In this document: positions 20,769-39,741 of the stretch, in pieces
Position numbering within the stretch: position 1 is the first letter of the stretch
Layout of the letters: each line of letters starts with the position of its first letter
Origin: Candidatus Woesearchaeota archaeon
GTDB taxonomy: Archaea; Nanobdellota; Nanobdellia; Pacearchaeales; GW2011-AR1
Assembly: GCA_964412025.1 (NCBI GenBank)
Contig: CAYPLY010000003.1
Coordinates: 47,659-111,658 of the forward strand
Direction of reading: 5' to 3'
Length of the DNA stretch: 64,000 bases
Notes under the pieces: generated by a model
The model's database searches: none
What the model was told of the DNA's origin: nothing
What the model saw: the letters and a program-made list of their open reading frames with translations, nothing else
Made by a program: the position numbers and the translations under genes

Positions 20769-21701
20769 TTAAAATGAAAACTTTGTTGAAGGTCTACAAA
20801 CCTCTTCAATCCCATTACTATCAACAAAATAAACAATCGTTTGAACATTTTTTGGATTTCTAAGATAATCCTCTGAAATTAAAACGTACTTTACAACTTC
20901 TTGAAAATTACTTATATCTCCCTCCATATCTATTACAAAATTTGAAGAGCCACTTTCATTTGTAAATACTAGCTTTACTCCTCCCATCACATCCTCTCCG
21001 GACCCAGATCTTGAAAGCATAACACTAAAGTTATTGGAAATACTACTAACCCCTTTTATACTTACAATAGTACGCCCACATTTTGTTTCAAGAGTTGGTA
21101 TACATTTACTGTTTATACAAGTATATCCCTCCTGAGTACATCCTCCGGCACATTGTTTGCCACATCCATCATCCCCACACTCTGCTCCAGAGGGACAATA
21201 TGAAATACAACTAATAGTTCCAGAAGCACCAAAAACAAATTCATCTCCCATGTTATCTAAATCTCCTTTTTTTATTTGGATATTCCCAATTTTACCCTCT
21301 TTAATCTCGAACTCAAAAACTGGAGTTAAAGAAACTTTTTTCATTCTTGAAACATTTGTAGAATTCATTTTAAAAAGAAATGTCTTTGTTCCCAACTCCT
21401 CTAAGGTTTCATTAATAAGTATTGTCTCTGTATGTTTTCCATCATCCATAACAAACTGCATACCTATAAAATCTCCTTTACCCACATTTCTCTTAACTAT
21501 AACAAGTAAAGAATTATTATCTCTAATCTGAACCTGAGATATCTCCAAATCTAAAGTATATTTACCTAAAGCACTCTGTTCATTACCTTTAACAACAACA
21601 TTTTTAATAACTATAAATGCAATCACTAAAAGCAAAACAAATGCAAACATGAATATTGCGGACGTTTTTGAAAAACCCTCCTTGCTTCCTCTCTTTGACA
21701 T
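20769..21701 (-). CDS. Pilin-like secreted protein, member of a three-gene paralogous family with a shared C-terminal domain
   Basis: Class III-like signal (KEGFSKTSAIFMFAFVLLLV), a Cys-rich central region, and a conserved C-terminal block GGVKLVFTNE...TIVYFVDSNGIEEVC shared with 34769..35353 and 39265..39741. The longest ORF runs to 21773; the likely start is an internal Met. Confidence 0.45.
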   Translation of the reverse strand: MSKRGSKEGFSKTSAIFMFAFVLLLVIAFIVIKNVVVKGNEQSALGKYTLDLEISQVQIRDNNSLLVIVKRNVGKGDFIGMQFVMDDGKHTETILINETLEELGTKTFLFKMNSTNVSRMKKVSLTPVFEFEIKEGKIGNIQIKKGDLDNMGDEFVFGASGTISCISYCPSGAECGDDGCGKQCAGGCTQEGYTCINSKCIPTLETKCGRTIVSIKGVSSISNNFSVMLSRSGSGEDVMGGVKLVFTNESGSSNFVIDMEGDISNFQEVVKYVLISEDYLRNPKNVQTIVYFVDSNGIEEVCRPSTKFSF

Positions 21702-21754
21702 ACAAAGATAAAGATTAAGTATTTTAAAAAGATATTCTAAAGGAAGATTAGTAA

Positions 21755-21807
21755 GGGCGGATGGAGAAACCAAGACACAAGTGTTCGGTTCTCTTATCTA
21801 ACCGAAC
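21755..21807. repeat. tRNA-His 3'-end-like fragment (gggcggatggag) plus hairpin
   Basis: The 12-nt match to the tRNA-His 3' end is followed by GTTCGGTT-n9-AACCGAAC. Confidence 0.4.
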
Positions 21808-22075
21808 CTAAAACAACAAAGCTGAATACAAAGAGAATTAAATCCACCAAAATTACAATTATTGGAAATTTCTTATTTTTATACATAAAAAAATGGATTA
21901 TTGAAAGAATAAATGTTAATGGTATTGAAATTAATATTATCCAAGCAAATGTTCTTATAAGAAGGTATGATGTAAAAAGAATAATAAAATGAATTATTGT
22001 AACAAGAAGCATAATTAAAAAAACAACTCTTAAAGCATACCAAATAAAACCCCTTTTATCCTCTTCCTGTTTCAT
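21794..22075 (-). CDS. Small membrane protein
   Basis: 93 aa with three hydrophobic helices. Confidence 0.35.
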   Translation of the reverse strand: MKQEEDKRGFIWYALRVVFLIMLLVTIIHFIILFTSYLLIRTFAWIILISIPLTFILSIIHFFMYKNKKFPIIVILVDLILFVFSFVVLGSVR

Positions 22076-22117
22076 ATTTTCATTAAAAGAAGATTATTTA
22101 TAAATCTTTTAAAAGGC

Positions 22118-22160
22118 AGGCGGATGGAGTAACCAGTTCAATGATGTTCGGGATGGTTAC
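22118..22160. repeat. Second tRNA-His 3'-end-like fragment (aggcggatggag) plus hairpin
   Basis: Related to 21755..21807 (ggcggatggag-[at]aacca...gttcgg). Followed by GTAACC-n20-GGTTAC. Confidence 0.4.
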
Positions 22161-22786
22161 CTTTTCTTTAGCACAAATGCTAAAATAACAAAACCGATTA
22201 TTATTGCAAATGCAATTATCGAACTTGCTAAAATTAAATGATTAGATTCCTTTTCTAAAGTAACCTCTCCAGTTGCTATTAACTTATTTCCTGGTGGAAT
22301 TTGAATATTTGTTGGTTTAGTTGTCTGGTTTATTTCTTCTTGTTCAACTTGATTTGAAATTTCTTCTAATGCTTCTTGGATTTGATATCTATCACGAGCA
22401 CTCCTCCCAGAATCAACTATAACGTTTATTCCTGTAGATTGTCTTAAATTTTTTCCAAATTCAAAATAATCGAAATCATCATAAGAATATAAGTTTGCTG
22501 TTTCTATTTGAGAATTCCTTATGTATTCATATAAATCGGAAAAATCTCCTGTTGTTCTTTTTAATTGAATAACAATTCCTTGTTTTCCAGAAGGAACAAG
22601 AGCATAGATTATACTTGCTTGGTTAAAGTTTTCAACCTCTCCTGCTTCAATAAAAAAACTATCACTATTAACTTCTTTTGTTATATAGAAAGAACCATAA
22701 GTACCATAAGCACCAACAAATATACTAAAGAATATTATAAATAAAAATAAAACAGATAACCTTAAACTTAATCTCATAAATTTCAT
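22157..22786 (-). CDS. Secreted protein with C-terminal transmembrane anchor
   Basis: Signal peptide, C-terminal hydrophobic helix, then KKR. Confidence 0.4.
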   Translation of the reverse strand: MKFMRLSLRLSVLFLFIIFFSIFVGAYGTYGSFYITKEVNSDSFFIEAGEVENFNQASIIYALVPSGKQGIVIQLKRTTGDFSDLYEYIRNSQIETANLYSYDDFDYFEFGKNLRQSTGINVIVDSGRSARDRYQIQEALEEISNQVEQEEINQTTKPTNIQIPPGNKLIATGEVTLEKESNHLILASSIIAFAIIIGFVILAFVLKKR

Positions 22787-22839
22787 AGTATCAAGTATTA
22801 TTTAAGTTTTAGCGTACTGAACAGAACATCATTGAACAG

Positions 22840-22911
22840 GGCGGATGGAGGGAATCGAACCCTCTCTATACGGACCACAACCGTATGTACTACCGTTATA
22901 CTACAACCGCC
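22840..22911 (-). tRNA. tRNA-His (anticodon GUG) with genomically encoded G-1
   Basis: Hand-folded cloverleaf: G-1 pairs with C73; 7-bp acceptor stem with one U-U mismatch; U8 and A9 present; 4-bp D stem; perfect 5-bp anticodon stem with loop UUGUGGU; T-loop TTCGATT. No CCA is encoded. Confidence 0.8.
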
Positions 22912-23003
22912 AAAATTTTGTGCGGTTATTGAAATGAACCTAAATCCACTCAAAACCACAACCTAAAATTATAAATCAGAAGACTTTTAATTCTTTTTGT
23001 TTA
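22896..23003. repeat. att repeat copy A (about 108 bp) covering the tRNA-His 5' end and upstream region
   Basis: Blocks ttatactacaaccgccaa and agacttttaattctttttgtttag, with a similar spacer (gcggttat...ccacaacctaaaa...ataaatcag), recur at 34100..34207 and partially at 34681..34767. Confidence 0.8.
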
Positions 23004-23160
23004 GTGTTTGATTTATCTTCCTATAAGTTGCTAACACCAAATTAAGAGTTTTCTTTGGATATTTCTTCCACTTTTCATATACTTGCAGTTCATTTAATCC
23101 AAATTCAATGGCATACATACACCAATCTTCTATATCTTTCTTTTTTATTTCCTTAACCAT
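22989..23160 (-). CDS. Small ORF (57 aa) overlapping the att repeat, possible excisionase-like or accessory protein
   Basis: Hand-translated as MVKEIKKKDIEDWCMYAIEFGLNELQVYEKWKKYPKKTLNLVLATYRKINQTLNKKN. Not in the ORF track because it is under 60 aa. Sits at the element edge opposite the integrase. Confidence 0.2.
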
Positions 23161-23224
23161 TTTAATTTATGTTATTGATAGATAGTCAATAAGGTTTTAA
23201 AAGATGAATGTAGGTTAAAACAAT

Positions 23225-24319
23225 ATGGTTGAGATTATTGATTTAAGCAAAGTTGAGAATAAGATTATTTTAGGTGATTGTATTGAGGAATTAAGGAAAT
23301 TTCCAGATGAATCAATAGACCTCATTTTTGCAGACCCACCCTATTTTATGCAAACAGAAGGTGAATTAATAAGACCAGAGGGCTCAAAGTTTGCAGGAGT
23401 AGAAGATGAATGGGATAAGTTTGACGGATATAAGGAATATGACAAATTCTGCTTTGAATGGTTAAAGGAATGTAGAAGAGTGTTAAAAAAGAATGGAACT
23501 ATCTGGGTAATTGGGGCCTTCCAGAATATCTATAGAATGGGTTATATTATGCAAAATTTAGGATATTGGATATTGAATGATGTTGTTTGGTCTAAACCAA
23601 ATGCTGTTCCTAATTTTGGAGGAACAAGATTTCAAAACTCTCACGAAACCATGTTATGGTGTGCTAAAGATAAGAACTCAAAATATACTTTCAATTATAA
23701 AACCATGAAGCATTTAAATGAAGATAAGCAAGATAAGAGTGTTTGGGATATTGGAATCTGTATAGGTAATGAAAGACTAAAAGGAGAAGACGGCAAAAAG
23801 ATGCATTCTACACAAAAGCCGGAGAAATTATTGTATAAAGTGATTTTATCTTCATCTAAACCCGGAGATTTAGTTTTAGACCCGTTTTTTGGAACAGGAA
23901 CGACCGGAGCAGTTGCAAAACTTCTTGGAAGGAAGTATATTGGAATTGAAAGAGATAAAAGTTATGTTTTAATGGCTAGAGAAAGAATAAGCAAAGTAAT
24001 TCCAGATGAAAACGAGATTACAAATTTAGAGTTAGAGGTTAAACCGCCCAAAGTGCCTATGGATGATTTAATTGAAAAAGGAATGTTAAAGGTTGGAGAG
24101 ACTTTATATGATAAAACAAAAAAGCATTCAGCAAAGATATTATTAAACGGACATCTAGATAACGGAAAAGATAAATTATCCATTCATAAAATGGCTGCAA
24201 AATATTCTAAAAAAGAAAATATGAATGGTTGGGATTTTTGGTATGTTGAAAAAGACGGAGAATTAAAAAGCATAAATCAGTTAAGATATGAATATATGAA
24301 TAAATTTATAACTAACTAA
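23225..24319 (+). CDS. Type II DNA N6-adenine methyltransferase, beta class
   Basis: Motif IV DPPY (LIFADPPYFMQTEG) precedes motif I FGTGTTGAVA; this circularly permuted order is typical of beta-class amino-MTases such as M.HinfI and M.RsrI. Confidence 0.85.
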   Translation: MVEIIDLSKVENKIILGDCIEELRKFPDESIDLIFADPPYFMQTEGELIRPEGSKFAGVEDEWDKFDGYKEYDKFCFEWLKECRRVLKKNGTIWVIGAFQNIYRMGYIMQNLGYWILNDVVWSKPNAVPNFGGTRFQNSHETMLWCAKDKNSKYTFNYKTMKHLNEDKQDKSVWDIGICIGNERLKGEDGKKMHSTQKPEKLLYKVILSSSKPGDLVLDPFFGTGTTGAVAKLLGRKYIGIERDKSYVLMARERISKVIPDENEITNLELEVKPPKVPMDDLIEKGMLKVGETLYDKTKKHSAKILLNGHLDNGKDKLSIHKMAAKYSKKENMNGWDFWYVEKDGELKSINQLRYEYMNKFITN

Positions 24320-24334
24320 AACTATTGTGATTCA

Positions 24335-25195
24335 ATGGAATATAAGAGGTTTAAAGAGATATTTAATGAATGTATTTTTGAAGAATCCAAAGCCATTCTT
24401 ATAGAAAAAATATCAAAATACCCTAATAGATATATTGGTTTATTTAGACCAACAAAACCAAAAGCAAAAATCTTGCAAAATCTACTTCAATCACATGAAA
24501 TTAGATTTGGAGAAGCATTTGAGGAAGTTATAGAAGAATACCTAAAGAATTCAGGATTTAATTTATTGCCAAAAAAATATTCTAATGAAGACAACCGCGC
24601 TCTAAATATTGACCAATGCTTCAAAGATGCTAAAAATGTCTTCTTTATAGAGCAAAAAGTAAGAGATGACCATGATTCAACAAAAAAAAGAGGGCAAATA
24701 GATAATTTTGTTAAAAAATTAGAGGTTATGATAAAAGAGCATGGAGAAAAGAAGATAATAGGAATCTTTTATTTTATTGACCCGGAAATAATCAAGAATA
24801 AGAAATATTATCAAGAAGAATTAAACAAGATGCAAAAGGATTATGGTGTAAAACTATACCTCTTTTATGGAAAAGAACTTTTTGAGTTCCTAAAGATTAC
24901 AAAGGTTTGGGATGAAATACTAAAATATCTAGAAGAATGGAAAAAAGATATTCCAGACCTACCAGAGACTAACTTTGATATTGATGCTCAAAGCAGTTTT
25001 GAGGAGATTAGGGATTTAAGCCCTGCAGTTTATAGAGACTTGTTTAAAGATGATGTAATTTTTAATGACATTGTATTAACAATCTTCCCGCAAAAGAAAA
25101 CATTAAAATTGCTCTTAGAATATTTTAAATCTAAATCTAAAGAAATGGTTATTTATTCGACTCTCGCAAAAGAATTAGAGAGAAAATTGGGTTAA
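24335..25195 (+). CDS. Putative type II restriction endonuclease partner of the adjacent methyltransferase
   Basis: Starts 16 nt after the methyltransferase stop on the same strand. Possible PD-(D/E)xK core (NIDQ...FFIEQKVRD). No other motif recognised. Confidence 0.4.
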   Translation: MEYKRFKEIFNECIFEESKAILIEKISKYPNRYIGLFRPTKPKAKILQNLLQSHEIRFGEAFEEVIEEYLKNSGFNLLPKKYSNEDNRALNIDQCFKDAKNVFFIEQKVRDDHDSTKKRGQIDNFVKKLEVMIKEHGEKKIIGIFYFIDPEIIKNKKYYQEELNKMQKDYGVKLYLFYGKELFEFLKITKVWDEILKYLEEWKKDIPDLPETNFDIDAQSSFEEIRDLSPAVYRDLFKDDVIFNDIVLTIFPQKKTLKLLLEYFKSKSKEMVIYSTLAKELERKLG

Positions 25196-25309
25196 ACTTT
25201 TAGGAATGGTGTTTTTTCTTATCCTTTGAAGTAATCACAAGATAAATAATCCAAATTATAAAAGGGATACCTATCCCCAACCACCACCAGATAGAAATTC
25301 CCCAGAGGC

Positions 25310-25804
25310 TCATTTTTTTAATCCCTCTATATTGTTGTTTTTATTATTTTTTAATTCAGATAACCTTTGAAATAAGCGAAGCAATTCTATTTGAACAGAT
25401 ATTTTAAACGTATGAAGCGGATTTTCACCACCCATCTTTTCTCCGTCTTTTGCTGGGTCAATATTATCTATTTGCCAGTCCATAGGTGTTTTTAACATTA
25501 ATTGTTCTATTTTCTTATCATCAATATCTATCTGATGCGCATATGCATTCCTTATTTGCCTAAGTTTATTGAGAATATTATATTCTATCTCTGAGAAGAT
25601 TTTTGTTGCCTTCAATATCTTTAATTTTATATCTTCTGAATTTATTTTATCTAATTCTGTTCCTAATTTTATCCTTAGAAATTCATTTACTAAATATTCA
25701 GAAATGATACCTAAACTTATTATTGTTTTTCTTGTATCTTTACTTTTATCAATTTCAAGAAGCATTTCTACTATATCATTATGTATTTCTTCATCCGTTT
25801 TCAT
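25310..25804 (-). CDS. HEPN-domain protein (Abi-like)
   Basis: Rx4-6H motif in LRQIRNAYAHQ within a helical protein. It is the last gene of a five-gene operon. Confidence 0.5.
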   Translation of the reverse strand: MKTDEEIHNDIVEMLLEIDKSKDTRKTIISLGIISEYLVNEFLRIKLGTELDKINSEDIKLKILKATKIFSEIEYNILNKLRQIRNAYAHQIDIDDKKIEQLMLKTPMDWQIDNIDPAKDGEKMGGENPLHTFKISVQIELLRLFQRLSELKNNKNNNIEGLKK

Positions 25805-25806
25805 TT

Positions 25807-26613
25807 TTATTCATAAAAGATTTTATTTTTATTTTTATCCCACTCTTCATCACCAAAATCGATTAAACCCAATCTCTTTAATCTTGCTTTAATCCCGCCT
25901 TCTTGTCTTTGAAACAAGACTGCAATATCTTCAATAGGAATTCCTCTGCTAAAATGCTCTTTAAGTTTTGCTTCTTCTTCAGAACTCCATTCTTGATAAG
26001 CATGAGGGCTTTCTTTTTTTATTTCTGCAATTCTACTTGCTTCCTTTTCAAAATTTACCTTTCTCTCTTTATTACTCCTCTTTGATTTTCCTTTTTTATA
26101 CCACTGCCTTGCTATACTTTCAAATAAGTCGATAACTTCTTCATTTTCAATATTAAATTTAGTCTTTAGCCATTCTCTAAGGCCAACAATCTTCAATAAA
26201 TCTTCATTATCTAAATAAAAAATATGAAAAACTTCTCTTTCATTCAGACTAACAAAAAAGACTTCTGAATGCTTGTAAATATGCAAACTGCTTAAATCTT
26301 CTTTGTTTAAAATTCCCTTTCTTCTATATTTAATTTCCATAAGATTAACACAACCTCTCTTATCGATTATTGCAAAATCTGGTAACCTTCTAATATAATC
26401 AAGTTCTACATTATCCTCTGATTTCCTATCTATTCTAAAATCTCCACCACAAGTCTTGATGAATTTCTCTATCTGAATTAAAGGTGTTGCTGTATGTTCT
26501 TGACCTATTTTAATAACAAAGAAACCTAAATTGATAAATAACTCTTCAAAAAGCATTTCGGAAATTCTGCCTTTTATTTTGCTATTGACCCAATCTTCAA
26601 CGTCATTCTTCAT
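25807..26613 (-). CDS. PD-(D/E)xK nuclease-fold protein with C-terminal helical domain
   Basis: E...PDFAIID...NLMEIKYRR fits the restriction-endonuclease-like catalytic core. There is a 2-nt gap to the downstream HEPN gene. Confidence 0.4.
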   Translation of the reverse strand: MKNDVEDWVNSKIKGRISEMLFEELFINLGFFVIKIGQEHTATPLIQIEKFIKTCGGDFRIDRKSEDNVELDYIRRLPDFAIIDKRGCVNLMEIKYRRKGILNKEDLSSLHIYKHSEVFFVSLNEREVFHIFYLDNEDLLKIVGLREWLKTKFNIENEEVIDLFESIARQWYKKGKSKRSNKERKVNFEKEASRIAEIKKESPHAYQEWSSEEEAKLKEHFSRGIPIEDIAVLFQRQEGGIKARLKRLGLIDFGDEEWDKNKNKIFYE

Positions 26614-26651
26614 AAAATATCAAAGTGTTCTAAGATTTAAAGATTTGTATC

Positions 26652-26882
26652 TTAAGGTTTCAATATATACTTCCAAGATAAAAAAAGTAATAAAGCGAGT
26701 ATTATAAAAAGAATAATCTTATTTCTAATCAATCTTCTCTTTTCTCTTCTTTCTTCTTCTTTAATATAATGCTCTTCCCATGCTTTTTGAATTTCTTTTT
26801 CTTGTTCTTTTGTTAATTTAGGATTATGTCCCTTATTATAAACAAACTTATGCAAACCGCCCGTGTTTACTTCTTCTGTCAT
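26652..26882 (-). CDS. Small tail-anchored membrane protein
   Basis: 76 aa. Charged N-terminus, then a C-terminal hydrophobic helix (IILFIILALLLFLSW). Confidence 0.35.
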   Translation of the reverse strand: MTEEVNTGGLHKFVYNKGHNPKLTKEQEKEIQKAWEEHYIKEEERREKRRLIRNKIILFIILALLLFLSWKYILKP

Positions 26883-26883
26883 T

Positions 26884-27561
26884 TTATCTAAATATTTTTC
26901 CTTCTATATTTAATCTCCAAACAATATGAACAAGAATTGTTTGAACAATTCCAATCAAAACTAACCCCCATATAAAATAAGTAGTAATATCTCCTACTAA
27001 AAATAAAATAAATTCCATAGTTATAATTTTTTCAATTAGATAAAAAGACAAAAAGAATAAACAACATTGAACAATAACCCAAAATAAAAAGCGCTTATCT
27101 ACTATCCATTTATGATTTAATACTAAAATTTGCATTATCTTACTACAAACTTCTATAATAAATCCGCTTAGGACAACAAACCATATTATTTTCATATCTG
27201 GAACATATATTTTTCTTATAAAGTATGAAACAATTATTCCAATTGTAAACGCAATAAACCAAATAAGATAATCTTTCACAAAACCCTTACTTCTACTTTT
27301 TTCCTTGTGGTGATGAGGAGAGGAATGTTTTTCCCGTTTCTTAAATATCTCTTTTCTAAAAAGGAATAAAACAATAGCCAGAGGTATTATAACCAGAGTA
27401 ATAATCTTTGATGTTTTATAAGAAAAACCTAATGAAGCAAGTAAAATAAAAATAAGCATTCCTACAAAAACAAGTGCAAGGAATTTTAAAGCAATCCATA
27501 ATGTTTCATCTTGTTGGTGTTCTTTCCAAGTTTTTACTATTACTACTTTCTCATTTCCCAT
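26884..27561 (-). CDS. Polytopic membrane protein
   Basis: 225 aa with five or six hydrophobic helices and a His/Lys-rich loop (HSSPHHHKEKSRSK). Confidence 0.45.
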   Translation of the reverse strand: MGNEKVVIVKTWKEHQQDETLWIALKFLALVFVGMLIFILLASLGFSYKTSKIITLVIIPLAIVLFLFRKEIFKKREKHSSPHHHKEKSRSKGFVKDYLIWFIAFTIGIIVSYFIRKIYVPDMKIIWFVVLSGFIIEVCSKIMQILVLNHKWIVDKRFLFWVIVQCCLFFLSFYLIEKIITMEFILFLVGDITTYFIWGLVLIGIVQTILVHIVWRLNIEGKIFR

Positions 27562-27963
27562 TTAAATATCCCAGAGATTTTTTCTTTTTGTATTTCCACC
27601 AAATAAATTAAAAGAATTATCTTGTCTTCGAATACTCTGCCTTGATTTTTTCTTATCTAATTCTCTTGCTTTATCCTCTTTATGTCTTTGAGAATGACAA
27701 TTTGCACAAATTGCTCTTAAGTTATCTGTTGTGCTCTTTCCCCCTTTGCTCACTTCTTTTTTATGGTCGTAGTGAGTAGATAAAGGATTTAGAGGTTTTT
27801 TACATATAGCGCATTTTCCATTCTGCCTTGAAAATACAACATCTTTTTGACTTCTTCCGATAGATTGTCTTTTGAATTTAGCATTTGAATTAGAACCCAC
27901 AGAACCAAAAGCAATTTTGTTCAAGTTGGTTTCAATCCTATTCCCAAAGATGTCCTTAGCCAT
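27562..27963 (-). CDS. HNH endonuclease
   Basis: CAICKK...HYDHKKEVSKGG...NLRAICANCHSQRH is a classic His-Me finger with Zn-binding cysteines. First gene of the operon. Confidence 0.8.
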   Translation of the reverse strand: MAKDIFGNRIETNLNKIAFGSVGSNSNAKFKRQSIGRSQKDVVFSRQNGKCAICKKPLNPLSTHYDHKKEVSKGGKSTTDNLRAICANCHSQRHKEDKARELDKKKSRQSIRRQDNSFNLFGGNTKRKNLWDI

Positions 27964-28464
27964 AATAAATAGAAATAAATGAATTTTATAAACATTGTTA
28001 ATTGTTTACAAATCAACCAATTAATGAACTGCTAAAAACGGGGGGTATAGAACACTAAAGAAAAATAGTGATTAAATGAACGGGGTTAAAAACGTCCGTT
28101 TTTAATTTTGGTATCAAATCACGACAGAATTAAAACCCTATCTCTTTATACTATTCTTTAAAGTTGTCGTAGTATATCTAAAACACGACATAACGCCATG
28201 CTCTTTTAATCTCATCATCAAAGAGTTTCTTTGAAATGTCCGTTTCATTATCAAGTTCTGTTTCTTCCTCTTCTTTCTTCTCTCGCTTTCTAACTTTCTT
28301 TTCTTTCAACTTTTTAATATATTCAGTTATTATTCCTTCTCTCATTTTTCTTTCTCTCTCTTAAAATTTCCTGAAAACATTGATAACAAAATTTTCCACC
28401 AAGAGCCCAAAAAAAATTATTACATTTTGAACAACAAATTTTTTTTAATTTTCTACCGCTCATT

Positions 28465-29497: not shown

Positions 29498-30856
29498 CTA
29501 AACCCCACCACCTTGATTTAAACTATAAACCCCCCGAATTGTTTTAGTTAGTATTCCTCTCTCTTCCAGAACCTTTAAAGCATTAAAGAAAGAGTTTTTG
29601 GGTTCTTTCTTAAAATCTTCTCTTGCTTTTTTTGTAGTAAAAGTTTCTAAATTTTCTTCTTTAATCCAAATCAATATCTTTTCAGCAATCTTTTCCTCTT
29701 TTGTTTGTGGAACGTAGACTACAGAACTAAACTTGATGAATTCTCCTTCCTTTGCTTCAATTTTTATTTGTAATGGTTCAATTTCTCGCGCATTTCTGCA
29801 TTTTAATTGCTTTAAAATTATATTATTTCCATGTTTTTCACACTTTAAGATAAAAGAAACATAGTTCGGCATATCACTTGAACCTCTTATATCATCCATT
29901 TCATCTCCAGAGTTTCCTTTCTTGTCATGGTGAATTAGAAGAATTGTTAGTTCATACTTGTCAACCAATGGTTGCAGAACGTCAATAAAGAACTTTGAAA
30001 CTTTGTCCGCACTATCTTCCTCAAAGGAGATAACTCTTCTGTAAGTATCTATAATTAGGAGTTTAGGTTTAATCTGGTCCACTATTTTCTCTAATGCGAT
30101 ATAATCTTCAACCTTATCGAGTTTTAATGGCTTAAATATAAAAGAGATGTCTAAATCTTCTTGTCTTCCTAAGCCGTTTTTAATCAAGTCTTTTCTTTCT
30201 TTGATGATTTGAAAGCCGTTTTCTCTATCTACATAAAGAACAATACTCTTTTCTGTTTGATATTTGTTAAATACTGGAAGCCCGAGGCTTACACACGTGC
30301 TAAAAAGTAAAGAAATAAAAGTTTTGAAAGAACCTCTTTTTCCTGTGAGAATTCCAATAGAACGTGCAGGAATTAAACCTTTTGCAATCCAGCCGATTTC
30401 TTTCTCCTTGTAGTTTTTCAAGTCTTTTTCCCAAACAAACTCTAAATCATTGCTTTCTTCTTCAACTTTATTGAAAAGATGAACTAATTCGGGTTTATTT
30501 TCTTTGGACCAATTAACCACCTCTCCAATATTGAAATTTTTTAATTCCCCTTTGTTCACTTTTTTAATCCAACCGAGCAAACCTCCAACCTTCCAACCTT
30601 GAGAAGCATATTTCTTCTTGATTGCCTCAATGTCAAGTTTATTTTGAACAATGTAAACAGCAAAGTTCTTTTCAAGGATTTTATTTAGTTGTCCTTCTGG
30701 AAGTTTTTCATTTAAGAAGATTTCAAAAAAGGAATTTATTCCTTCTGTTTGATTTGAATTAAAACCACTTTGAAAATTTATTTGTAGTTGTTCAGATTTT
30801 TTTAGTTCTTCATTAAATTCTTCCCAAAGGTCTAAAGGAATTTCTTGCTCATGCAT
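29498..30856 (-). CDS. RecA-fold AAA_25-like ATPase (replicative helicase or RepA-like)
   Basis: Walker A GILTGKRGSFKTF and a Walker B-like LLIIDTY...LLIHHDKKG, as in the plasmid/phage primase-associated AAA_25 family. Confidence 0.55.
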   Translation of the reverse strand: MHEQEIPLDLWEEFNEELKKSEQLQINFQSGFNSNQTEGINSFFEIFLNEKLPEGQLNKILEKNFAVYIVQNKLDIEAIKKKYASQGWKVGGLLGWIKKVNKGELKNFNIGEVVNWSKENKPELVHLFNKVEEESNDLEFVWEKDLKNYKEKEIGWIAKGLIPARSIGILTGKRGSFKTFISLLFSTCVSLGLPVFNKYQTEKSIVLYVDRENGFQIIKERKDLIKNGLGRQEDLDISFIFKPLKLDKVEDYIALEKIVDQIKPKLLIIDTYRRVISFEEDSADKVSKFFIDVLQPLVDKYELTILLIHHDKKGNSGDEMDDIRGSSDMPNYVSFILKCEKHGNNIILKQLKCRNAREIEPLQIKIEAKEGEFIKFSSVVYVPQTKEEKIAEKILIWIKEENLETFTTKKAREDFKKEPKNSFFNALKVLEERGILTKTIRGVYSLNQGGGV

Positions 30857-31548: not shown

Positions 31549-32589
31549 ATGAAGATTGAAAATATAGATAGTCCAGAAGGACAGGAGTTGATTGACGATA
31601 TATTTACAATATTTGAAAATGAAAGGTTCAGAGAACTAAAAGAGGGTGTTAAAAAAAATGAAGAGTTAAAAAATGCAGAAATTCTAAATAAATTGTATAA
31701 TAAGAATTTAGCAAATGCAGATTATTTTAAGAGTATAATAAAATATACCGTAAATAGCACATCTTGTTCTTATTTGAGTTTTGATTTCTTCTTAAGACAA
31801 AAAGATATTAAAATAGGGTTTGAAGAATTGAGTAAGACTGCACATATGGACGGAGGATATAATACAAATTGGATTAAAGCATATTATAGAATTTATTATC
31901 TTGTAGATAATAATTTTTTTACGAAACAAGAATTGAGAGAAATATTACGATACCTTTTGTGGATACACCAAATTTTTATTAAAAAGATAGCAAAAACATT
32001 TGTTGTTAAAGATACATACTATACCCCCACTCCAGACCAGATATTTAGAGAAAATCTTCAGGAATTATATTATGAATGTGAGAAATTGATTAATTTTAAG
32101 CAGATGGAAATTTTGATTAAAGAAGTGGGAAAAGATATTGATAAAGAAGAGTTTGACCAAGTTATTAATTTGTTAGAAAATACTACTCTTGATAAAGATT
32201 TTAAAGAGGGTTTATTAAAATTGCAAAAATTATACTACGATTCTCAGGATAAAATTGATTTTGCAAAGAATGCTTCAAGCATAAGACCTCTCTTCTCTGC
32301 ACTAATTAAAGATATTGCAATAGACATATCTAAAAAAAATGGAACTACCTTAAGAGAGAATATGCAAGATGAGCAATATAAAGAATATTTGAAAGAATTA
32401 AATATTCTTGGACCTGGAGAAATAGAAATGATTAATGGCCTTTATCAAATGAATAGTAATTATGCTAATCATAAATTTAAGACAGACAAAGATTACTTTA
32501 GAGTTTTATTTAATATGTGTCTTTCAATCGTTGATTTAATTTTAGTAAATTATAATTTTATCATTAAAGAGAAAGATAAGAATGAATAA
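31549..32589 (+). CDS. Hypothetical protein (element-encoded)
   Basis: 346 aa helical protein with no recognisable motif. Confidence 0.35.
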   Translation: MKIENIDSPEGQELIDDIFTIFENERFRELKEGVKKNEELKNAEILNKLYNKNLANADYFKSIIKYTVNSTSCSYLSFDFFLRQKDIKIGFEELSKTAHMDGGYNTNWIKAYYRIYYLVDNNFFTKQELREILRYLLWIHQIFIKKIAKTFVVKDTYYTPTPDQIFRENLQELYYECEKLINFKQMEILIKEVGKDIDKEEFDQVINLLENTTLDKDFKEGLLKLQKLYYDSQDKIDFAKNASSIRPLFSALIKDIAIDISKKNGTTLRENMQDEQYKEYLKELNILGPGEIEMINGLYQMNSNYANHKFKTDKDYFRVLFNMCLSIVDLILVNYNFIIKEKDKNE

Positions 32590-32894
32590 ACACAAAAATA
32601 TGTAATTCATTTTTACAAATTTATAAAAACATATATATTGTAAATTTATCTTTGTTTTTTCACGGTTTCAGAAATTTTTGTTTTTGGTCGGAGAATAAAA
32701 TTATAAGACTTTTCATCTTCACAGATTAATCCAATTACTTTTTGATTAACAATAAATTCATAATCATCAATTTTTATTTTTCCTTTCATTTTTTTGCTTT
32801 TGCCCTCTCTAATAATGAATTTCAAGATAAAGTGGAAATTGTTTCTTCATTGTATAAAAATTATATAAAGACATTTTATAAATGTCGATTAGTT

Positions 32895-34040
32895 TTAGAA
32901 AGTCTTTTGTTGTCCAGATATTTTAAGAGTTAAAGGTAATTGTTCAGTAGAAAACTCTCTTTGAATAAGAACTGCAATTATTTTATCCATGTCTTTTCTT
33001 AGTTCTGCATTCTCTTCTCTTATTTTTTGCATTTGTTCTTCTATCTGGTGTTTCTTCTCTGGTGTAATATCCTTGAAATCATATACTTGTTTTCTCAAGA
33101 TTTTAGTTTTATCCTCTTTACTCATATGAGAATAAACTTTGTCAAACATCTTCTCAGAATGTCTCATGAAACTTATTGCATTATCCTTGCTCATAACATT
33201 TTGTTTGACTAATCTCTGCAATTCTGTTCCTCTCGTGTGCCTTAACAAATAGTTATATTTTGGTTTTCCTAAAACTTTTAATGTTATCTCGTTAAATCTA
33301 TCATTAACTCGCTTTGAAATATACTCGTTTGTATTTTGCGGAGAAGGAAAAACCCACTTTGAAACTATCCCTTCACTTTTTTGTTGCTCTCTGAGTTTTC
33401 TCAAATACTTAGTTGCTAAGTTCAAAGGAATTTCTTCAGTGTGTTCTGTTGCATCTCGGTTCTTCTTAGATGAAACTTTGATATTGCAAAACTCTTCATC
33501 TTCTTCAAAAAAAACATCACTCCACTTTAAACGCCTACATTCACCAGTTCGCAAACCTCCTTCGTATTGGGTGATGAAAAAACATTGATAAAACAAACTC
33601 TTTTCTGCTATCATCAGTTTTTCAATATCTTCTTTCTTTAGAATATCCTCTGAGGTTATCTCTTTCTTTCTCTGAGCATTTGAATTGAAATGTAAGTCTT
33701 CAAGATTGTTAAAGAGTTCACTCCAATTCTTAAACTTCCATTTAATAAACTGCTGAAGATATGCTTTAATTTTATTCTTCGTAAAATCTGCAAATGTAGA
33801 GAGTTTTAACTCTTTCAAGAAATATCTTAAATCTTCTAAATCAAAATCATTAATCTCTTTTCCAGTAACCACTCTAAACCTTAAGATTTCTCGAACTGCT
33901 TCCTTTGTTCTTTCTTCACTTGCAGAAATAAGCAGATAGTCTTTAAACCGCTCAAGAACCTCTTTCTCTTCCCTTGAGAGATGTCTATAGAGTTTCTCTG
34001 AGGTTTTCTCCTTGCTGAATTCAAAAATGGGTTTTCTCAT
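32895..34040 (-). CDS. Tyrosine recombinase / integrase
   Basis: The C-terminal catalytic domain has R (TGECRRLKWSDV), HxxR (LLRHTRGTE) and the Tyr region (KVYSHMS). The N-terminus beyond the Met at 34040 runs into the att repeat and is probably not translated. Confidence 0.8.
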   Translation of the reverse strand: MRKPIFEFSKEKTSEKLYRHLSREEKEVLERFKDYLLISASEERTKEAVREILRFRVVTGKEINDFDLEDLRYFLKELKLSTFADFTKNKIKAYLQQFIKWKFKNWSELFNNLEDLHFNSNAQRKKEITSEDILKKEDIEKLMIAEKSLFYQCFFITQYEGGLRTGECRRLKWSDVFFEEDEEFCNIKVSSKKNRDATEHTEEIPLNLATKYLRKLREQQKSEGIVSKWVFPSPQNTNEYISKRVNDRFNEITLKVLGKPKYNYLLRHTRGTELQRLVKQNVMSKDNAISFMRHSEKMFDKVYSHMSKEDKTKILRKQVYDFKDITPEKKHQIEEQMQKIREENAELRKDMDKIIAVLIQREFSTEQLPLTLKISGQQKTF

Positions 34041-34099
34041 GTCCGGCCCAGCAAGTAACCCTTTAAAAGCATATCTATAACCGCACAATAAAACTACAA

Positions 34100-34207
34100 T
34101 TATACTACAACCGCCAATATTAATGACGCGGTTATAAAAGCAGACTAATCTGCTCAAACCACAACCTAAAAGCATAAATCAGTAGACTTTTAATTCTTTT
34201 TGTTTAG
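34100..34207. repeat. att repeat copy B
   Basis: Same two conserved blocks and a similar spacer as copy A. Confidence 0.8.
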
Positions 34208-34661
34208 CTTTTTCTTCTTTATTTACTTCATTTTCCCACTCAATATCTCCCCTAATAATCTCCTCTAAGAAATCATATAAATTATCACAAGCAAGTTTAT
34301 AATCTTCACAATCGGGGTTTACCTCAAATATATTACACCATCCATTTTTATCCTTAGAAGACAAATTTAGAGATAGAATAAAGTCATCATATCTGCTAAT
34401 AACTAAAAAACTCTTATCTCTTTCAAGACTTCTAATAAAGTTTGTTTCTTCAATAATTTCCTTAATAGAAAGAATATCAAAATCAGAATTAAACAAGTTT
34501 AATTTATAATTAGTAAGATAAATCATAAATTCTTCTGGAAGAGTTATCTTAAGTTTATTTTCTAACAAATCAATATCCCCTTTTGATATTGAATTAGAAT
34601 AAGATATTTTGTTGGGATACAATTTAATTAGTTTATCAAATTCTTGTTTAATATATTTCAT
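34179..34661 (-). CDS. SMI1/KNR4 (SUKH-1)-like immunity protein
   Basis: 160 aa. The LPEEFMIYLTNY motif and overall SUKH-like pattern match this family. It is the only gene between att copies B and C. Confidence 0.4.
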   Translation of the reverse strand: MKYIKQEFDKLIKLYPNKISYSNSISKGDIDLLENKLKITLPEEFMIYLTNYKLNLFNSDFDILSIKEIIEETNFIRSLERDKSFLVISRYDDFILSLNLSSKDKNGWCNIFEVNPDCEDYKLACDNLYDFLEEIIRGDIEWENEVNKEEKAKQKELKVY

Positions 34662-34680
34662 TTTCTAATCCTCCACAATA

Positions 34681-34767
34681 ATACTACAACCGCCAATATA
34701 TGTTCCGATTATGTATTTTTCAGAACTAGAATTACTAAATTAGAAGACTTTTAATTCTTTTTGTTTA
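34681..34767. repeat. att repeat copy C (partial)
   Basis: atactacaaccgccaatat ... agacttttaattctttttgttta; the spacer diverges from copies A and B. Confidence 0.7.
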
Positions 34768-34768
34768 C

Positions 34769-35353
34769 TCAAAAACTAAGACTGCTTGAGCTAGAACAAA
34801 TTTCCGGATTTCCTTCTTCATCCAAAAAATAAACAACAACGTCAACTTTGTTAGGATTTTCCAAATCTTCTTCAGGAATACTTACTCTTATCGTTTCTTC
34901 AAAGATATCTCCAGGAGCATCATAAAAATACTTCCCATTTTCATCATTGCTAAATATCATCTTAACCCCTCCAATTGTATAATCATTTATTCCAGATATC
35001 CTTGAGAGAGTAACATCAAAAACTTCGGGCATTGTTTTTGAAACTTCTGTGGGCATAACTTTTAAACTAATACACCTTTCATGCAAATTTGGGAGACTTC
35101 CCCCTCCTTCATTAACAGTATTTCTAATCCCTATCCAGGCAATACCTATAAGAATCATTAATATAAAGAAAAGGAAGAAAATGCTTCCAATAACAATGGA
35201 AACAATTGCCATCCACTCTCCTTTTTCATGGGTCTTCTTTATTTGAGAAAGAGAAATTATTCCTAAGATAAATCCAACGGGAAAAAATAAAAATGTAAAT
35301 ACAAGTGCTAATATAGCTAAAGTATTATATCTATTCTCCTCTCCCATAACCAA
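34769..35353 (-). CDS. Membrane-anchored secreted protein, pilin-like paralog family member
   Basis: N-terminal hydrophobic helices, then the C-terminal block VFDVTLSRISG...GGVKMIFSNDE...VDVVVYFLDEEGNPEIC shared with 39265..39741 and 20769..21701. Confidence 0.45.
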   Translation of the reverse strand: MVMGEENRYNTLAILALVFTFLFFPVGFILGIISLSQIKKTHEKGEWMAIVSIVIGSIFFLFFILMILIGIAWIGIRNTVNEGGGSLPNLHERCISLKVMPTEVSKTMPEVFDVTLSRISGINDYTIGGVKMIFSNDENGKYFYDAPGDIFEETIRVSIPEEDLENPNKVDVVVYFLDEEGNPEICSSSSSLSF

Positions 35354-35436
35354 AACAATAAATCCTATGATATAAATCTTTCTAAAATAAGAAAGAAACC
35401 TTTAAATAACTAATTTGATTTATTTAGTGAATAGGG

Positions 35437-37854
35437 GTGAACATGGATAAGAAAAAAGAGAAGATTCTATGGTTTAATGAATTGTCAATTGAAGATGTCC
35501 CACTTGTGGGAGGAAAAAATGCTTCTTTAGGAGAGATGTACAAAGAAATTCATAAAAAAGGAGTTAAAGTTCCAAACGGATTTGCTATAACAGCAAATGC
35601 GTATAGATATTTTATTGAAGAAGCGGGAATAAAAGAGAAAATAAAAAAGATTCTTTCAGATTTAAACACTCACGATATGAAAAATCTTTCTGAAAGAGGA
35701 GAAAAAGTAAGAGATGCAATACTCTCAAGTGAATTACCAAAAGACCTTGAAGAAGAAATAATAAGAAACTATGAAAAACTATGCAAAGAATACAAAAGAA
35801 ATAATCTAGATGTTGCAGTTAGAAGTTCTGCAACCGCAGAAGATTTGCCAGATGCAAGTTTTGCAGGACAACAAGAGACTTTCCTAAATATAAAAGGACA
35901 TAAGGCTTTAATAGAATCATGTAAAAAATGTTTTGCATCTTTATTTACAAACAGAGCAATATCTTACAGGGTGGACAAAGGATTTGATCATTTTAGTATT
36001 GCATTATCGGTATGTGTTCAAAAGATGGTAAGAAGCGATTTAGCATGTTCTGGAGTAATGTTCTCTATTGATACAGAATCTGGATTTAAAGATGCTGTAT
36101 TCATTACTTCGTCTTATGGATTGGGAGAAAATATAGTATTAGGAGTTGTAAATCCAGATGAGTACTATGTACATAAACCCACCTTAAAACAAGGATATAA
36201 ACCAATAATCTCAAGAAAGCTGGGAGATAAAATTCAGAAATTAATTTATTCTCATGAGGGAACAAAACCCACAAAAAATGTCTCGGTAGATCCGGAAGAT
36301 AGAAAAAAATTCTCTCTCGAAGATAAAGAAGTGTTACAACTTGCAAAATGGGCATGTATAATTGAAGATCATTATAGCGAAAAAGCAAAAAAATTCAAGC
36401 CTATGGACATGGAATGGGCAAAAGATGGGCAAACAGGAGAATTGTTTATTGTTCAGGCAAGACCCGAGACTGTAAACAGTCAAAAAGATATGAATATACT
36501 TGAAGAATACATTCTAAAACAAAAAGGAAAAATAATTGTGGAAGGAGGGAGTGTTGGATCAAAAATAGGATGCGGAAGAGCAAATGTAATCAAAGACGTT
36601 TCAGGAATTAATAATTTCAAAAAAGGAGAAGTATTGGTAACAGATATGACAGATCCTGATTGGGAACCCATAATGAAAATAGCTTCAGCAATAGTAACAA
36701 ACAGAGGGGGAAGAACCTGTCATGCTGCAATTATCTCGCGTGAGCTAGGAATTCCTTGTGTTGTTGGAACAAACAAAGGAACTGAGAAAATAAAGAAAGG
36801 ACAGAATATAACTGTAAGCTGTGCCGAAGGAGAAAGAGGAAAAGTCTATGAAGGAATATTAAAATATGATATTCAAAAACACAATTTAAAGGAATTAGGA
36901 AAAACAAGAACAAAGATAATGATGAACATAGGTGCTCCGGATCAGGCATTCGAACAAAGCTTCACACCAAACGACGGGGTAGGACTTGCAAGAGAAGAAT
37001 TCATTATAAATTCTTATATTAAGATACATCCGATGGCTTTAGTAAACTACAAAAAAATAAAGGACGAAAAGCTAAAAGATGAAATAGATGAGTTAACTCA
37101 TGGATACAAAGACAAAGAGCAATACTTCATAGATAAACTAGCAGAGGGAATAGGAATGATTGCAGCCGCATTTTATCCAAAGGATGTAATTGTTAGAACC
37201 AGTGATTTTAAAACAAATGAATATGCAAATTTAATAGGTGGAAAAGAATATGAACCAAAAGAAGAAAACCCCATGATAGGATGGAGAGGAGCTTCAAGAT
37301 ATTACAAAAATGAATACAAACCAGGATTTGTCCTAGAATGTAAGGCATTTAAAAAGGTAAGAGAAGAATTTGGATTAAAGAATGTAAAGATAATGATCCC
37401 ATTTTGTAGAACAGTAGAAGAAGGAAAGAAAGTTCTAAAAATAATGGAAGAAAATGGTCTGAAGAGAGGTAAAAATGATTTAGAGGTATATGTAATGTGT
37501 GAAATACCTTCAAATGTAATACTTTGTGATCAATTCTCAAAGATATTTGACGGATTTTCTATAGGAAGTAATGATCTTACCCAATTAACACTTGGATTAG
37601 ATAGAGATTCGTCAATAGTCTCAGATATATACGATGAGAGAAATGAAGCAGTAAAAAGATTAATAGCAGATGTTATAAAAAAATGTAAAACCTATAAAAG
37701 AAAAATTGGGATATGTGGGCAGGCCCCATCAGATTTCCCTGATTTTGCACAGTTCTTAGTTGAATGTGGAATAGATTCCATTTCATTAAACCCTGACACG
37801 GTTATAAAGACAAAAATTGCAATAGCAGAAACTGAAAAGAAATTAAGAAAGTAA
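35437..37854 (+). CDS. ppsA: Phosphoenolpyruvate synthase (pyruvate, water dikinase)
   Basis: 805 aa. ATP-grasp N-terminus, phospho-His domain GGRTCHAAIISRELGIPCVVG, and a C-terminal PEP-utilising TIM barrel (SIGSNDLTQLTLGLDRDS). Confidence 0.92.
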   Translation: MNMDKKKEKILWFNELSIEDVPLVGGKNASLGEMYKEIHKKGVKVPNGFAITANAYRYFIEEAGIKEKIKKILSDLNTHDMKNLSERGEKVRDAILSSELPKDLEEEIIRNYEKLCKEYKRNNLDVAVRSSATAEDLPDASFAGQQETFLNIKGHKALIESCKKCFASLFTNRAISYRVDKGFDHFSIALSVCVQKMVRSDLACSGVMFSIDTESGFKDAVFITSSYGLGENIVLGVVNPDEYYVHKPTLKQGYKPIISRKLGDKIQKLIYSHEGTKPTKNVSVDPEDRKKFSLEDKEVLQLAKWACIIEDHYSEKAKKFKPMDMEWAKDGQTGELFIVQARPETVNSQKDMNILEEYILKQKGKIIVEGGSVGSKIGCGRANVIKDVSGINNFKKGEVLVTDMTDPDWEPIMKIASAIVTNRGGRTCHAAIISRELGIPCVVGTNKGTEKIKKGQNITVSCAEGERGKVYEGILKYDIQKHNLKELGKTRTKIMMNIGAPDQAFEQSFTPNDGVGLAREEFIINSYIKIHPMALVNYKKIKDEKLKDEIDELTHGYKDKEQYFIDKLAEGIGMIAAAFYPKDVIVRTSDFKTNEYANLIGGKEYEPKEENPMIGWRGASRYYKNEYKPGFVLECKAFKKVREEFGLKNVKIMIPFCRTVEEGKKVLKIMEENGLKRGKNDLEVYVMCEIPSNVILCDQFSKIFDGFSIGSNDLTQLTLGLDRDSSIVSDIYDERNEAVKRLIADVIKKCKTYKRKIGICGQAPSDFPDFAQFLVECGIDSISLNPDTVIKTKIAIAETEKKLRK

Positions 37855-37905
37855 GATATAAACTTAATCCGCCAATCTTAAAAACTCCTATTTCTCTTTA
37901 TTCTA

Positions 37906-39126
37906 ATGAACAAATCTGCAAAAAAAATAAAATCGAGTAAATATGAGCTCTTAGCCCCGGCAGGAGATTTTGCAATGCTTACCACAGCAGTTAACGCAGG
38001 AGCAGATGCAGTTTATTTTGGATTAAAGGAATTCTCATTAAGAGCAAACGCAAGAAACTTTGAAATAAAAGATTTAACCAAAATAAATGAAATATGCAAT
38101 AAAAACAAAAATAAAAAAGTAAAAAAATACCTTACTTTAAATTCAATAATTTATACCAATGAACTTCAAAGGATTGAAGAAATATTAAAAAAAGTAAAAG
38201 GAAAAATAGATGCAGTAATATGCTGGGATTTGGGAGTTATTCAATTATGTAAAAAATACAAAATCCCTTTTCATATATCGACACAAGCTTCAGTTTCAAA
38301 TATTGAATCTGCAAAATTCTATAAAAATTTAGGGGCCGAGAGAATAGTCCTTGCAAGAGAATTAAATATTAAACAAATAAAAGAGATAATAAAAAATACC
38401 AACGTTCAAATTGAAGTATTTATACATGGAGCAATGTGCCTTGCTGTAAGTGGACGTTGTCTTATGTCACAATTTTTATTTAACAAATCTGCTAACAGAG
38501 GAGAATGTATACATCCTTGTAGAAGAAATTATACTATAAAAGATACTCAGGAGGGATATGAATTAGAAATTGAAAATAATCACGTATTATCTGCAAAAGA
38601 CTTATGTGTCTTACCTTTTATTGATAATTTAAAGAAAGCAGGGATAACCTGTTTTAAAATAGAAGGGAGAAACAGAGAACCAAGATATTTAGATACAGTA
38701 ATCAGAGTTTATAGAAATGCTCTTGATAAAAAACTAACACAACAAGAAATAAAAGATTCAATTGAAGAACTAAAAAAAGTGTATAATAAAGGATTTTCTT
38801 CAGGATTCTATTTGGGACAACCAACCCCAAATGATTTTTCAAACATTGAACACTCAAGCGCAACAGAAAAAAAGCAATTTGTAGGAAAGATATCTCATTA
38901 CTATCCCAAAATAGGAGTAGCAACAATAAAACTCGTCTCGGAATTAAAAATTGGAGATAAAATAATAGTTATTGGAAAAACAACAGGAATAACCAATTCT
39001 AAGATAGAAGAAATTGAGATAAATAACCAATCAGTTAATTCTGGAAAAAAAGGGCAAGAAGTAGGAATAAAACTTCCATTAGTTAGAAAGAATGAAGAAG
39101 TTTATAAGATAATAAAAGTAAAATAA
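37906..39126 (+). CDS. Peptidase U32 family protein (collagenase-like / tRNA-modification TrhP-like)
   Basis: YELLAPAGDFAMLTTAVNAGADAVYFG...E.GRNREPRY match the U32 signature. Confidence 0.8.
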   Translation: MNKSAKKIKSSKYELLAPAGDFAMLTTAVNAGADAVYFGLKEFSLRANARNFEIKDLTKINEICNKNKNKKVKKYLTLNSIIYTNELQRIEEILKKVKGKIDAVICWDLGVIQLCKKYKIPFHISTQASVSNIESAKFYKNLGAERIVLARELNIKQIKEIIKNTNVQIEVFIHGAMCLAVSGRCLMSQFLFNKSANRGECIHPCRRNYTIKDTQEGYELEIENNHVLSAKDLCVLPFIDNLKKAGITCFKIEGRNREPRYLDTVIRVYRNALDKKLTQQEIKDSIEELKKVYNKGFSSGFYLGQPTPNDFSNIEHSSATEKKQFVGKISHYYPKIGVATIKLVSELKIGDKIIVIGKTTGITNSKIEEIEINNQSVNSGKKGQEVGIKLPLVRKNEEVYKIIKVK

Positions 39127-39264
39127 ATTAATTTACAAATACGATATCATAATTTGAACAAGGTTATGGTTTTACCGTGATAATTAACTTCTTATTATAA
39201 AATTAACAGAATATCCATTAAACAAAAATAAAAAGAATAAAAAAAAGAATAAAAAAATAAAAAA

Positions 39265-39741
39265 TTAATAAATCTGGAAAACGCTAGGTGTATCACAGAA
39301 AGACTGTTCGTTAGTATCCTCATTTAAGTAGAATACTACTACACTTACTTTGCTTGGAACTAATCCTGCGCACTCTTCATCTGCTAAATTAACTGAAACA
39401 GTAGTTGTCTTTTGAGCTGGTAAAGGATAATCCTCGTTCATTATATCAACAGGACAACTTTCTAATTCTTCAGCATCAGTAAATATCAACTTAACACCAC
39501 CAATTTCATCAGTACCTCTCTTCCTATTAAGAGTTACATCATAAACATCTACACCAGCAGAATTAACCTGAGTTACAGCAACTTCAGATGCTAAACACTT
39601 AGAACTGATATTAACATCATCAGCTCCTCCCTGTACAACCCCTCTTATAACAAGCCAAATTATACCTACTGCTACAAGAGTAAGCAGAATTATTAACAAA
39701 GTTGCAACAATTGTGGACAAACCCTTTTTATTATTTTTCAT
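39265..39741 (-). CDS. Archaeal type IV pilin-like protein (class III signal peptide)
   Basis: MKNNKKGLSTIVATLLIILLTLVAVGIIW is a typical archaeal prepilin signal with a cleavage site after KG. The C-terminal block GGVKLIFTD...VSVVVFYLNEDTNEQSFC defines the paralog family. Confidence 0.6.
   Translation of the reverse strand: MKNNKKGLSTIVATLLIILLTLVAVGIIWLVIRGVVQGGADDVNISSKCLASEVAVTQVNSAGVDVYDVTLNRKRGTDEIGGVKLIFTDAEELESCPVDIMNEDYPLPAQKTTTVSVNLADEECAGLVPSKVSVVVFYLNEDTNEQSFCDTPSVFQIY

Follow-up and report, generated by a model that had tools for sequence, protein, structure and literature searches.

The window analysed here, a 64,000-nucleotide stretch of contig CAYPLY010000003.1 from a Candidatus Woesearchaeota archaeon (GC ~30%), carries three minus-strand open reading frames (ORFs), named A, B and C, at the coordinates given beforehand in the original prediction, which had been made from the sequence and described them as three paralogous pilin-like proteins. 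Gene A (39265..39741) encodes a predicted type IV filament subunit (pilin) of 158 aa, while gene B (34769..35347) and gene C (20769..21701) encode proteins of 192 aa, counted from ATG, and 310 aa, respectively. The interpretation favoured here, held with fair but not full confidence, is that A builds the type IV filament, in all likelihood a pilus for adhesion, of a DPANN archaeon of the Woesearchaeota/Pacearchaeota type, and that B and C are membrane-anchored paralogues of its head. Both in sequence and in fold, A has the features of an archaeal type IV filament subunit, and its identity rests on several independent lines of evidence. For B and C it was concluded that, judging from their sequences, they are old paralogues rather than canonical pilins.

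Protein A starts with a leader (MKNNKKG), with a predicted cleavage site between G7 and L8, followed by a hydrophobic helix (aa 8-51) and a head (aa ~45-158; 39268..39609, minus strand). The whole window was screened with a FlaFind-type pattern combined with a hydrophobicity filter, and A was the sole class III match (KKG/LSTIVATLL, with the slash at the predicted cut; hydrophobicity 2.69). The class III signal and the pilin architecture claimed for A were therefore supported, while the description of all three proteins as pilin-like was abandoned, since the pattern fits A alone. A word-indexed search with A returned 149 homologues at E ≤ 1e-3 (120 listed). Among the matches listed, most proteins were about 141-171 aa long, the named ones came from Nanoarchaeota/Nanobdellota, Pacearchaeota and Diapherotrites, and a few were labelled by their sources as 'archaellin/type IV pilin N-terminal domain-containing' or 'flagellin-like'. 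Across 59 aligned family members, residues G7, L8, S9, I11, V12, T14, L15, L20, V23, A24 and G26 of the leader and helix were invariant. The head was variable except for C49, G82 and C149, with an identity far below that of the helix; the two other cysteines of A, C96 and C124, are lineage-specific. The model TIGR02537 was matched by 57 of the 59 members at E ≤ 0.01, and the N-terminus of the UpsA pilin model by 24 of them.

Structure prediction, which had been suggested as a check, was carried out for A with AlphaFold2 using the family alignment. The model was lollipop-shaped, with a 44-residue helix (8-51) followed by an eight-strand sandwich of the immunoglobulin (Ig)/fibronectin type III (FnIII)-like kind, at a predicted local distance difference test score (pLDDT) of 87.9. 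The full-length structural matches of A were archaeal pilins and archaellins, the closest small one being a pilin, and entry 8fk7 was the only pilin or archaellin among the weak sequence matches of A in the PDB. Foldseek searches against PDB and BFVD gave generic FnIII/ApaG-like sandwiches and nothing virus-specific. As modelled, the head has no exotic fold but the Ig/FnIII-like beta sandwich that is also known from FlaF and from other pilins and archaellins of archaea.

Based on these features, the following route is proposed for A. The preprotein would insert in the membrane with its short basic leader on the cytoplasmic side, and a PibD/FlaK-type class III signal peptidase would cut it between G7 and L8. 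The hydrophobic helix, which is nearly invariant, would then pack in the core of the filament, and the drive for this would come from an ATPase of the FlaI/PilB type and a platform of the FlaJ/TadC type, both with genes elsewhere. The variable outer surface would be formed by the Ig-like head, which a disulfide between Cys49 and Cys149 probably clamps.

The relationship among the three proteins was evaluated by BLASTP, which gave E-values of 2e-21 for A and B (31% identity over 157 columns, helix included), 1e-16 for B and C (38% identity over 112 columns) and 1e-4 for A and C. A hidden Markov model (HMM) made from the three C-termini scored 145-185 bits on A, B and C when run on the 528 six-frame ORFs of the window; no fourth ORF of this set matched it, the next best having an E-value of 1.6. 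The similarity is therefore real and, in the window, confined to A, B and C. This bears out the three-way C-terminal paralogy that had been claimed, and the peptides quoted in its favour were located in the three ORFs. The shared unit was found to be longer than the ~90 aa first estimated, namely ~107 aa (about 105-110), and to hold two conserved cysteines, one per end, instead of a single one. The first lies just past the helix and the second near the C-terminus; in A they correspond to C49 and C149. The statement that the head matches no described domain holds for the Pfam copy that was searched (with limits of E ≤ 1 for the three proteins and E ≤ 0.1 for 44 domain sequences), and the surface location that had been suggested is plausible.

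In order to map its distribution, the head profile was searched exhaustively against 1.84 billion representatives of clusters at 50% identity. A limit of E ≤ 1e-3 gave 529 clusters for the family, and the stricter limit of 1e-10 left 308. Architectures were read from the best 150 of the 529 clusters and from fetched sequences, and class III pilins of ~150 aa made up the large majority. The head was also present in longer class III pilins (340-430 aa), which have a Cys-rich stretch and a C-terminal module of unknown kind, in proteins of the B type (~186-208 aa), where the anchor is DUF4190 or another two-helix unit, and in two-copy proteins of the C type (~300 aa). Secreted multidomain proteins that carry it, of 800-1000 aa, were few. 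In a rough neighbour-joining tree, the C-type heads were monophyletic and the DUF4190-bearing B types lay near B of the window, beside the C types. Repeated recruitment of the head is suggested, because the other anchored forms were scattered among the pilins. When one genome was scanned for each GTDB species, 117 relatives were obtained, almost all in metagenome-assembled genomes (MAGs) of Woesearchaeota, Pacearchaeota, Nanoarchaeota and Iainarchaeum/Diapherotrites, and several genomes had more than one. For the long modular pilins (loci L011, 1482-2642, and L012, 1774-2883) a conserved mini-context was observed, in which the long pilin comes after a DUF357 gene and two genes of ~250 and ~90 aa, in that order. 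No assembly machinery was found beside these pilins, on contigs of only 2.7-2.9 kb.

The ORF list had B start at TTG 35353 (194 aa). Its orthologues open with MGEEN…, and those of two related loci (L002 and L004) share the same Met and the DUF4190 domain; the start is most likely ATG 35347, because the orthologues begin at that Met. The parts of B are, in order, a DUF4190 two-helix anchor, a pilin-like helix remnant (IGIAWIGIRNTVNEGGG) and the head domain (34772..35089, minus strand), which scored 97.5 bits in hmmsearch, was also recovered by BLASTP to A and C, and has its cysteines at positions 92 and 184 in the ATG numbering. The DUF4190 (PF13828) segment (35159..35320, minus strand; residues 12-65 in the TTG numbering) was detected with an E-value of 1.3e-11 and 44.5 bits against a cut-off of 35. 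The same model gave 45-54 bits on the B orthologues of L002 and L004 and on the family members P0136, P0143, P0147 and P0180, and the fusion of DUF4190 with the head was found in at least four further 50%-identity clusters. The alignment of A with B spans the cytoplasmic loop of B (KKTHEKG), its second helix (…IGIAWIGIRNTVNEGGG, versus …VGIIWLVIRGVVQGGAD in A) and the head. Since the alignment runs through the helix, B resembles a pilin in which the leader and the first half of the helix were replaced or extended by a membrane hairpin. According to the positive-inside rule, the head of B would sit outside the cell. A word-indexed search with the B head alone returned one truncated A-type fragment.

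Protein C has an N-terminal transmembrane (TM) helix (aa ~12-45) and two copies of the head with a Cys-rich linker between them. The second copy (aa ~204-310; 20772..21092, minus strand) is canonical, with cysteines at 208 and 302 and an hmmsearch score of 110.3 bits. The first (aa ~51-129; 21315..21551, minus strand) is divergent and Cys-less, and was detected by hmmsearch with an i-E of 1.9e-5 and 19.8 bits; when this first sandwich was compared with the head domain by hhalign, an E-value of 6.9e-5 and a probability of 63% were obtained. Four C-type proteins also showed '2 stretches' of the head in the exhaustive profile search. The linker (CxxxCPSGAECGDDGCGKQCAGGCTQEGYTCINSKC…) contains nine cysteines from aa 165 to 208, and Cys208 doubles as the first cysteine of the domain. 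Seven more homologues of C were found (212-311 aa); one is truncated, and the other six are full-length and repeat the layout of C. An AlphaFold2 model of C showed a helix at 12-45, a sandwich at 49-131, a low-confidence part at 132-190 and a second sandwich at 212-310. From its sequence, the N-terminus of C looks like an uncleaved signal anchor. A precomputed match of C (P0122) to PF27906.1 was also noted; the local Pfam copy does not hold that model, and our own scan found nothing. PF27906.1 may cover the Cys-rich CPSGAECGDDGCGxxCxGGC linker, and this motif repeats in tandem in an 811-aa protein (P0205).

The genomic neighbourhood of A was conserved among relatives. In two loci where A is 88% identical (L002 and L003), the order was glutamyl-tRNA synthetase (GluRS), A, U32 peptidase, phosphoenolpyruvate (PEP) synthase, B, a variable stretch, tRNA-His, C, thioredoxin reductase, Dph2 and, after further genes, histidyl-tRNA synthetase (HisRS). 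The same order, minus the PEP synthase, was found in L004, where A is about 49% identical. A 39%-identical relative showed just GluRS, A and HisRS, without B and C. This conserved synteny at a housekeeping locus indicates that A was vertically inherited, and B and C most likely arose by duplication beside it. In a related but more distant Woesearchaeota MAG (L007, 10001-11086), two tandem A-type pilin genes of 153 and 158 aa lie directly after GluRS, which suggests that duplication is still going on at this locus.

Several results weigh against the favoured interpretation of A, B and C. A itself fell just short of the TIGR02537 cut-off (E 0.0012, 18.3 bits against 20). The comparison with DUF361 and the archaeal pilin families, which had been recommended in the original prediction, gave no match of A, B or C to the Pfam pilin and archaellin models at E ≤ 1; such models include PF04021 Class_IIIsignal, PF07790 Pilin_N and PF01917 Arch_flagellin. 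Pilins, archaellins and adhesins were likewise absent from the 19 families listed for 44 head-domain sequences (Pfam, E ≤ 0.1). The model of C was of low confidence, with a pLDDT of 65, and it is by analogy that B and C are given their roles. No FlaI/PilB-type ATPase, platform protein or A24 peptidase was recognised in the 64-kb window, and none was found when the ±10-kb surroundings of 92 related loci (1.2 Mb) were screened for motifs of T2SSE-type ATPases and A24 peptidases, a heuristic approach and not an HMM search; the motif screens of the window and of the 1.2 Mb turned up ABC transporters only. In a groundwater preprint, type IV pilus (T4P) components were stated to be 'missing in DPANN genomes', and pili to be diagnostic of bacteria of the candidate phyla radiation. 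Other published work reads differently. A 2024 study of Woesearchaeota MAGs reported flaB, flaH, flaI, flaJ and flaK in most of them, and its 'archaellin type IV' genes ranked in the top ten by expression (PMC11606122), and a 2026 survey placed type IV filament (TFF) systems 1 and 4A and Aap-like loci in some DPANN. In view of these reports, it is likely that A-family proteins are served by the machinery they require. Both a pilus and an archaellum-like structure are compatible with the literature.

The second option would have A as the archaellin of a reduced archaellum, and B and C as functional analogues of FlaF/FlaG, stators whose archaellin-like sandwiches sit on TM anchors and which tie the motor to the envelope. 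This is regarded as rather unlikely. It agrees with the fla genes reported for most Woesearchaeota MAGs and with the archaellin- and flagellin-like source names of some family members. However, Pfam and NCBIfam gave no archaellin or FlaF/FlaG match at E ≤ 1, no fla operon adjoined A, B or C in the loci examined, and the closest small full-length match of A was a pilin. FlaF and FlaG are normally encoded within the archaellum operon.

Under the preferred interpretation, in which A forms a filament and B and C are anchored paralogues, the latter two would most likely stay in the membrane with the head displayed at the cell surface. In B, a DUF4190 two-helix anchor joined to the C-terminal half of a pilin helix would carry a single head. 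In C, one TM helix that stays uncleaved would carry two heads, one of them degenerate, with a Cys-rich knot in between. The two proteins may serve as filament-associated base or envelope-anchoring components like FlaF/FlaG, or as short-range adhesins. A bolder proposal, to which a low probability is given, is that the type IV filaments of DPANN have accessory components in which a pilin head is tethered to the membrane, and that the B and C types are this class, so far unrecognised. In that case they could be a basal subunit added last, which anchors or terminates the filament in the membrane, or a long-leader pilin from which the prepilin peptidase removes the whole first TM helix. If this were true, a conserved three-gene module of pilin, anchor and stalk would be available for host attachment of these ultra-small archaea.

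It is improbable that all three proteins are true type IV pilins, with B and C as minor pilins cut at HEKG/EWMAIV (B, after an extra leader helix) and KEG/FSK (C). The cytoplasmic loop and second helix of B do align with the leader and helix of A, other DUF4190-type members read [RQK]G/L[AS]IAA, which is near the class III consensus, and a G precedes the hydrophobic stretch in most C orthologues. The multiple family members of several genomes are also what would be expected for major and minor pilins. Nevertheless, both proteins fail the FlaFind-type pattern, the only KG site of B having W at +2, and TIGR02537 matches neither of them at E ≤ 1. At the putative cleavage site of C, Lys is invariant at +3 and one orthologue has Arg for Gly at -1 (TR/F). 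Moreover, DUF4190 is widespread in bacteria without pilin processing, and the KG-x-G-hydrophobic motif belongs to DUF4190 itself.

Equally improbable is that there is no filament, the head being a surface or adhesion module of DPANN and A being tethered by, or released from, a class III-type anchor, as modelled on the sugar-binding proteins of the Sulfolobus bindosome, which have class III-type N-terminal anchoring. The many non-pilin contexts of the head (two-TM anchors and secreted proteins of 800-1000 aa), the loci screened, where no assembly genes lay near family members, and the preprint claim of T4P absence from DPANN speak in its favour. It is weakened by the fact that a whole 25-residue helix stays near-invariant while the heads differ by more than 50%, which is more than a membrane anchor needs and is predicted by helix-helix packing in a filament core; in addition, A is small, with a single head and no match to a ligand-binding family, and Woesearchaeota carry flaI, flaJ and flaK.

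The tRNA-His gene (22839..22910, minus strand), which relatives carry 50 nt upstream of C, on the downstream side of B, is the integration target by which the two are now separated. Its 5' part together with ~100 nt of upstream sequence is present in three copies in the window (22889-23009, 34093-34212 and 34672-34773); the repeats use the 5' part of the tRNA and not the 3' end. The first two copies enclose an 11.2-kb element at tRNA-His, which encodes a tyrosine integrase (32895..34040, minus strand), an N6_N4 methylase with RAMA (23225..24319), an AAA_25 protein (29498..30856) and an HNH nuclease (27562..27963). The third copy is diverged and begins at the stop codon of B. The claim that one family member abuts the attachment (att) site of the integrated element is thus true of this third repeat, whereas the repeat at the boundary of the element is ~560 nt off. 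The 580-bp stretch between the second and third copies, with a SUKH-1/SMI1_KNR4 ORF (34179..34661) as its sole ORF, is probably the remnant of an older insertion.

In the window, it is mobile DNA at tRNA-His that pushes B and C apart. The stretch from B to tRNA-His and C differs per genome (L002, 7175-9752; L004, 8578-9791; window, 21794-22786): DsbD_TM and Thioredoxin_3 genes were found in L002, two unknown ORFs in L004, and membrane ORFs of 209 and 93 aa between tRNA-His and C in the window. Such a pattern suggests that integration recurs at this hot spot, with one of the two pilin paralogues on either side. The intervening ORFs were considered as conserved partners and rejected, as ORF209, ORF93 and ORF160 had no homologues in the loci compared. 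The DsbD_TM and thioredoxin genes of L002 were also considered as support for disulfide handling, and were downgraded because their stretch belongs to the variable hot spot. Elsewhere in the window (4698-10223), a cluster of further predicted surface proteins was noted: a 521-aa protein with an N-terminal TM helix and no Pfam match (4698..6263), a 447-aa GLUG-motif protein (8225..9568, minus strand) and a 197-aa Cys-rich secreted protein (9630..10223).

Among archaea, the Woesearchaeota and Pacearchaeota are ultra-small, uncultured and probably host-dependent, which raises the question of how they attach to their partners. A pilin that is vertically inherited, strongly conserved and located beside GluRS is a concrete candidate for their main surface filament. 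As an expected type of gene alone, A is not surprising. What is new is a head-domain family within a well-known kind of protein, with a profile (529 clusters) that is missing from the Pfam copy searched, together with two conserved membrane-anchored paralogues. The three proteins and the head profile offer targets for metaproteomics, for antibody or cryo-electron tomography labelling and for annotation. They are useful for the surface biology of DPANN and bear on the conflicting literature over type IV filaments in these archaea.

When known systems are compared, the grafting of C-terminal modules onto pilins, as in PilB of Streptococcus sanguinis (PMC8179133), is shared by the 340-430-aa pilins of the wider family. 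The pilin fold and the modules are different, and A, B and C are not of the modular type. With FlaF/FlaG (ArlF/ArlG), B and C have no family match (NCBIfam/Pfam, E ≤ 1), and only the fold resembles FlaF. Their neighbours are housekeeping genes instead of a fla operon, B is carried on a DUF4190 two-helix anchor, and C has two heads and a Cys-rich linker. Regarding the small membrane proteins with DUF4190, the N-terminal two helices of B exceed the gathering score of this family. Typical members are short and lack an extracytoplasmic domain, whereas B fuses DUF4190 to a pilin helix remnant and a head.

The systems most like A are the archaeal Ig-headed pilins, such as the 'flagellar-like' type IV pilin of Pyrobaculum calidifontis (8fk7) and UpsA/Aap of Sulfolobus. 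They share the leader with K-G followed by L-S-x-I-V-x-T-L, the hydrophobic helix of ~44 residues, the single beta-sandwich head and a length of about 140-160 aa, and the N-terminus of the A family matches both TIGR02537 and the UpsA model. In contrast, the head sequence of 8fk7 is unrelated to that of A (17% identity), and A has no Pfam match at E ≤ 1 in the copy searched. Compared with these pilins, A is further set apart by the invariant Cys pair that brackets its whole head and by a gene located beside GluRS, away from assembly genes.

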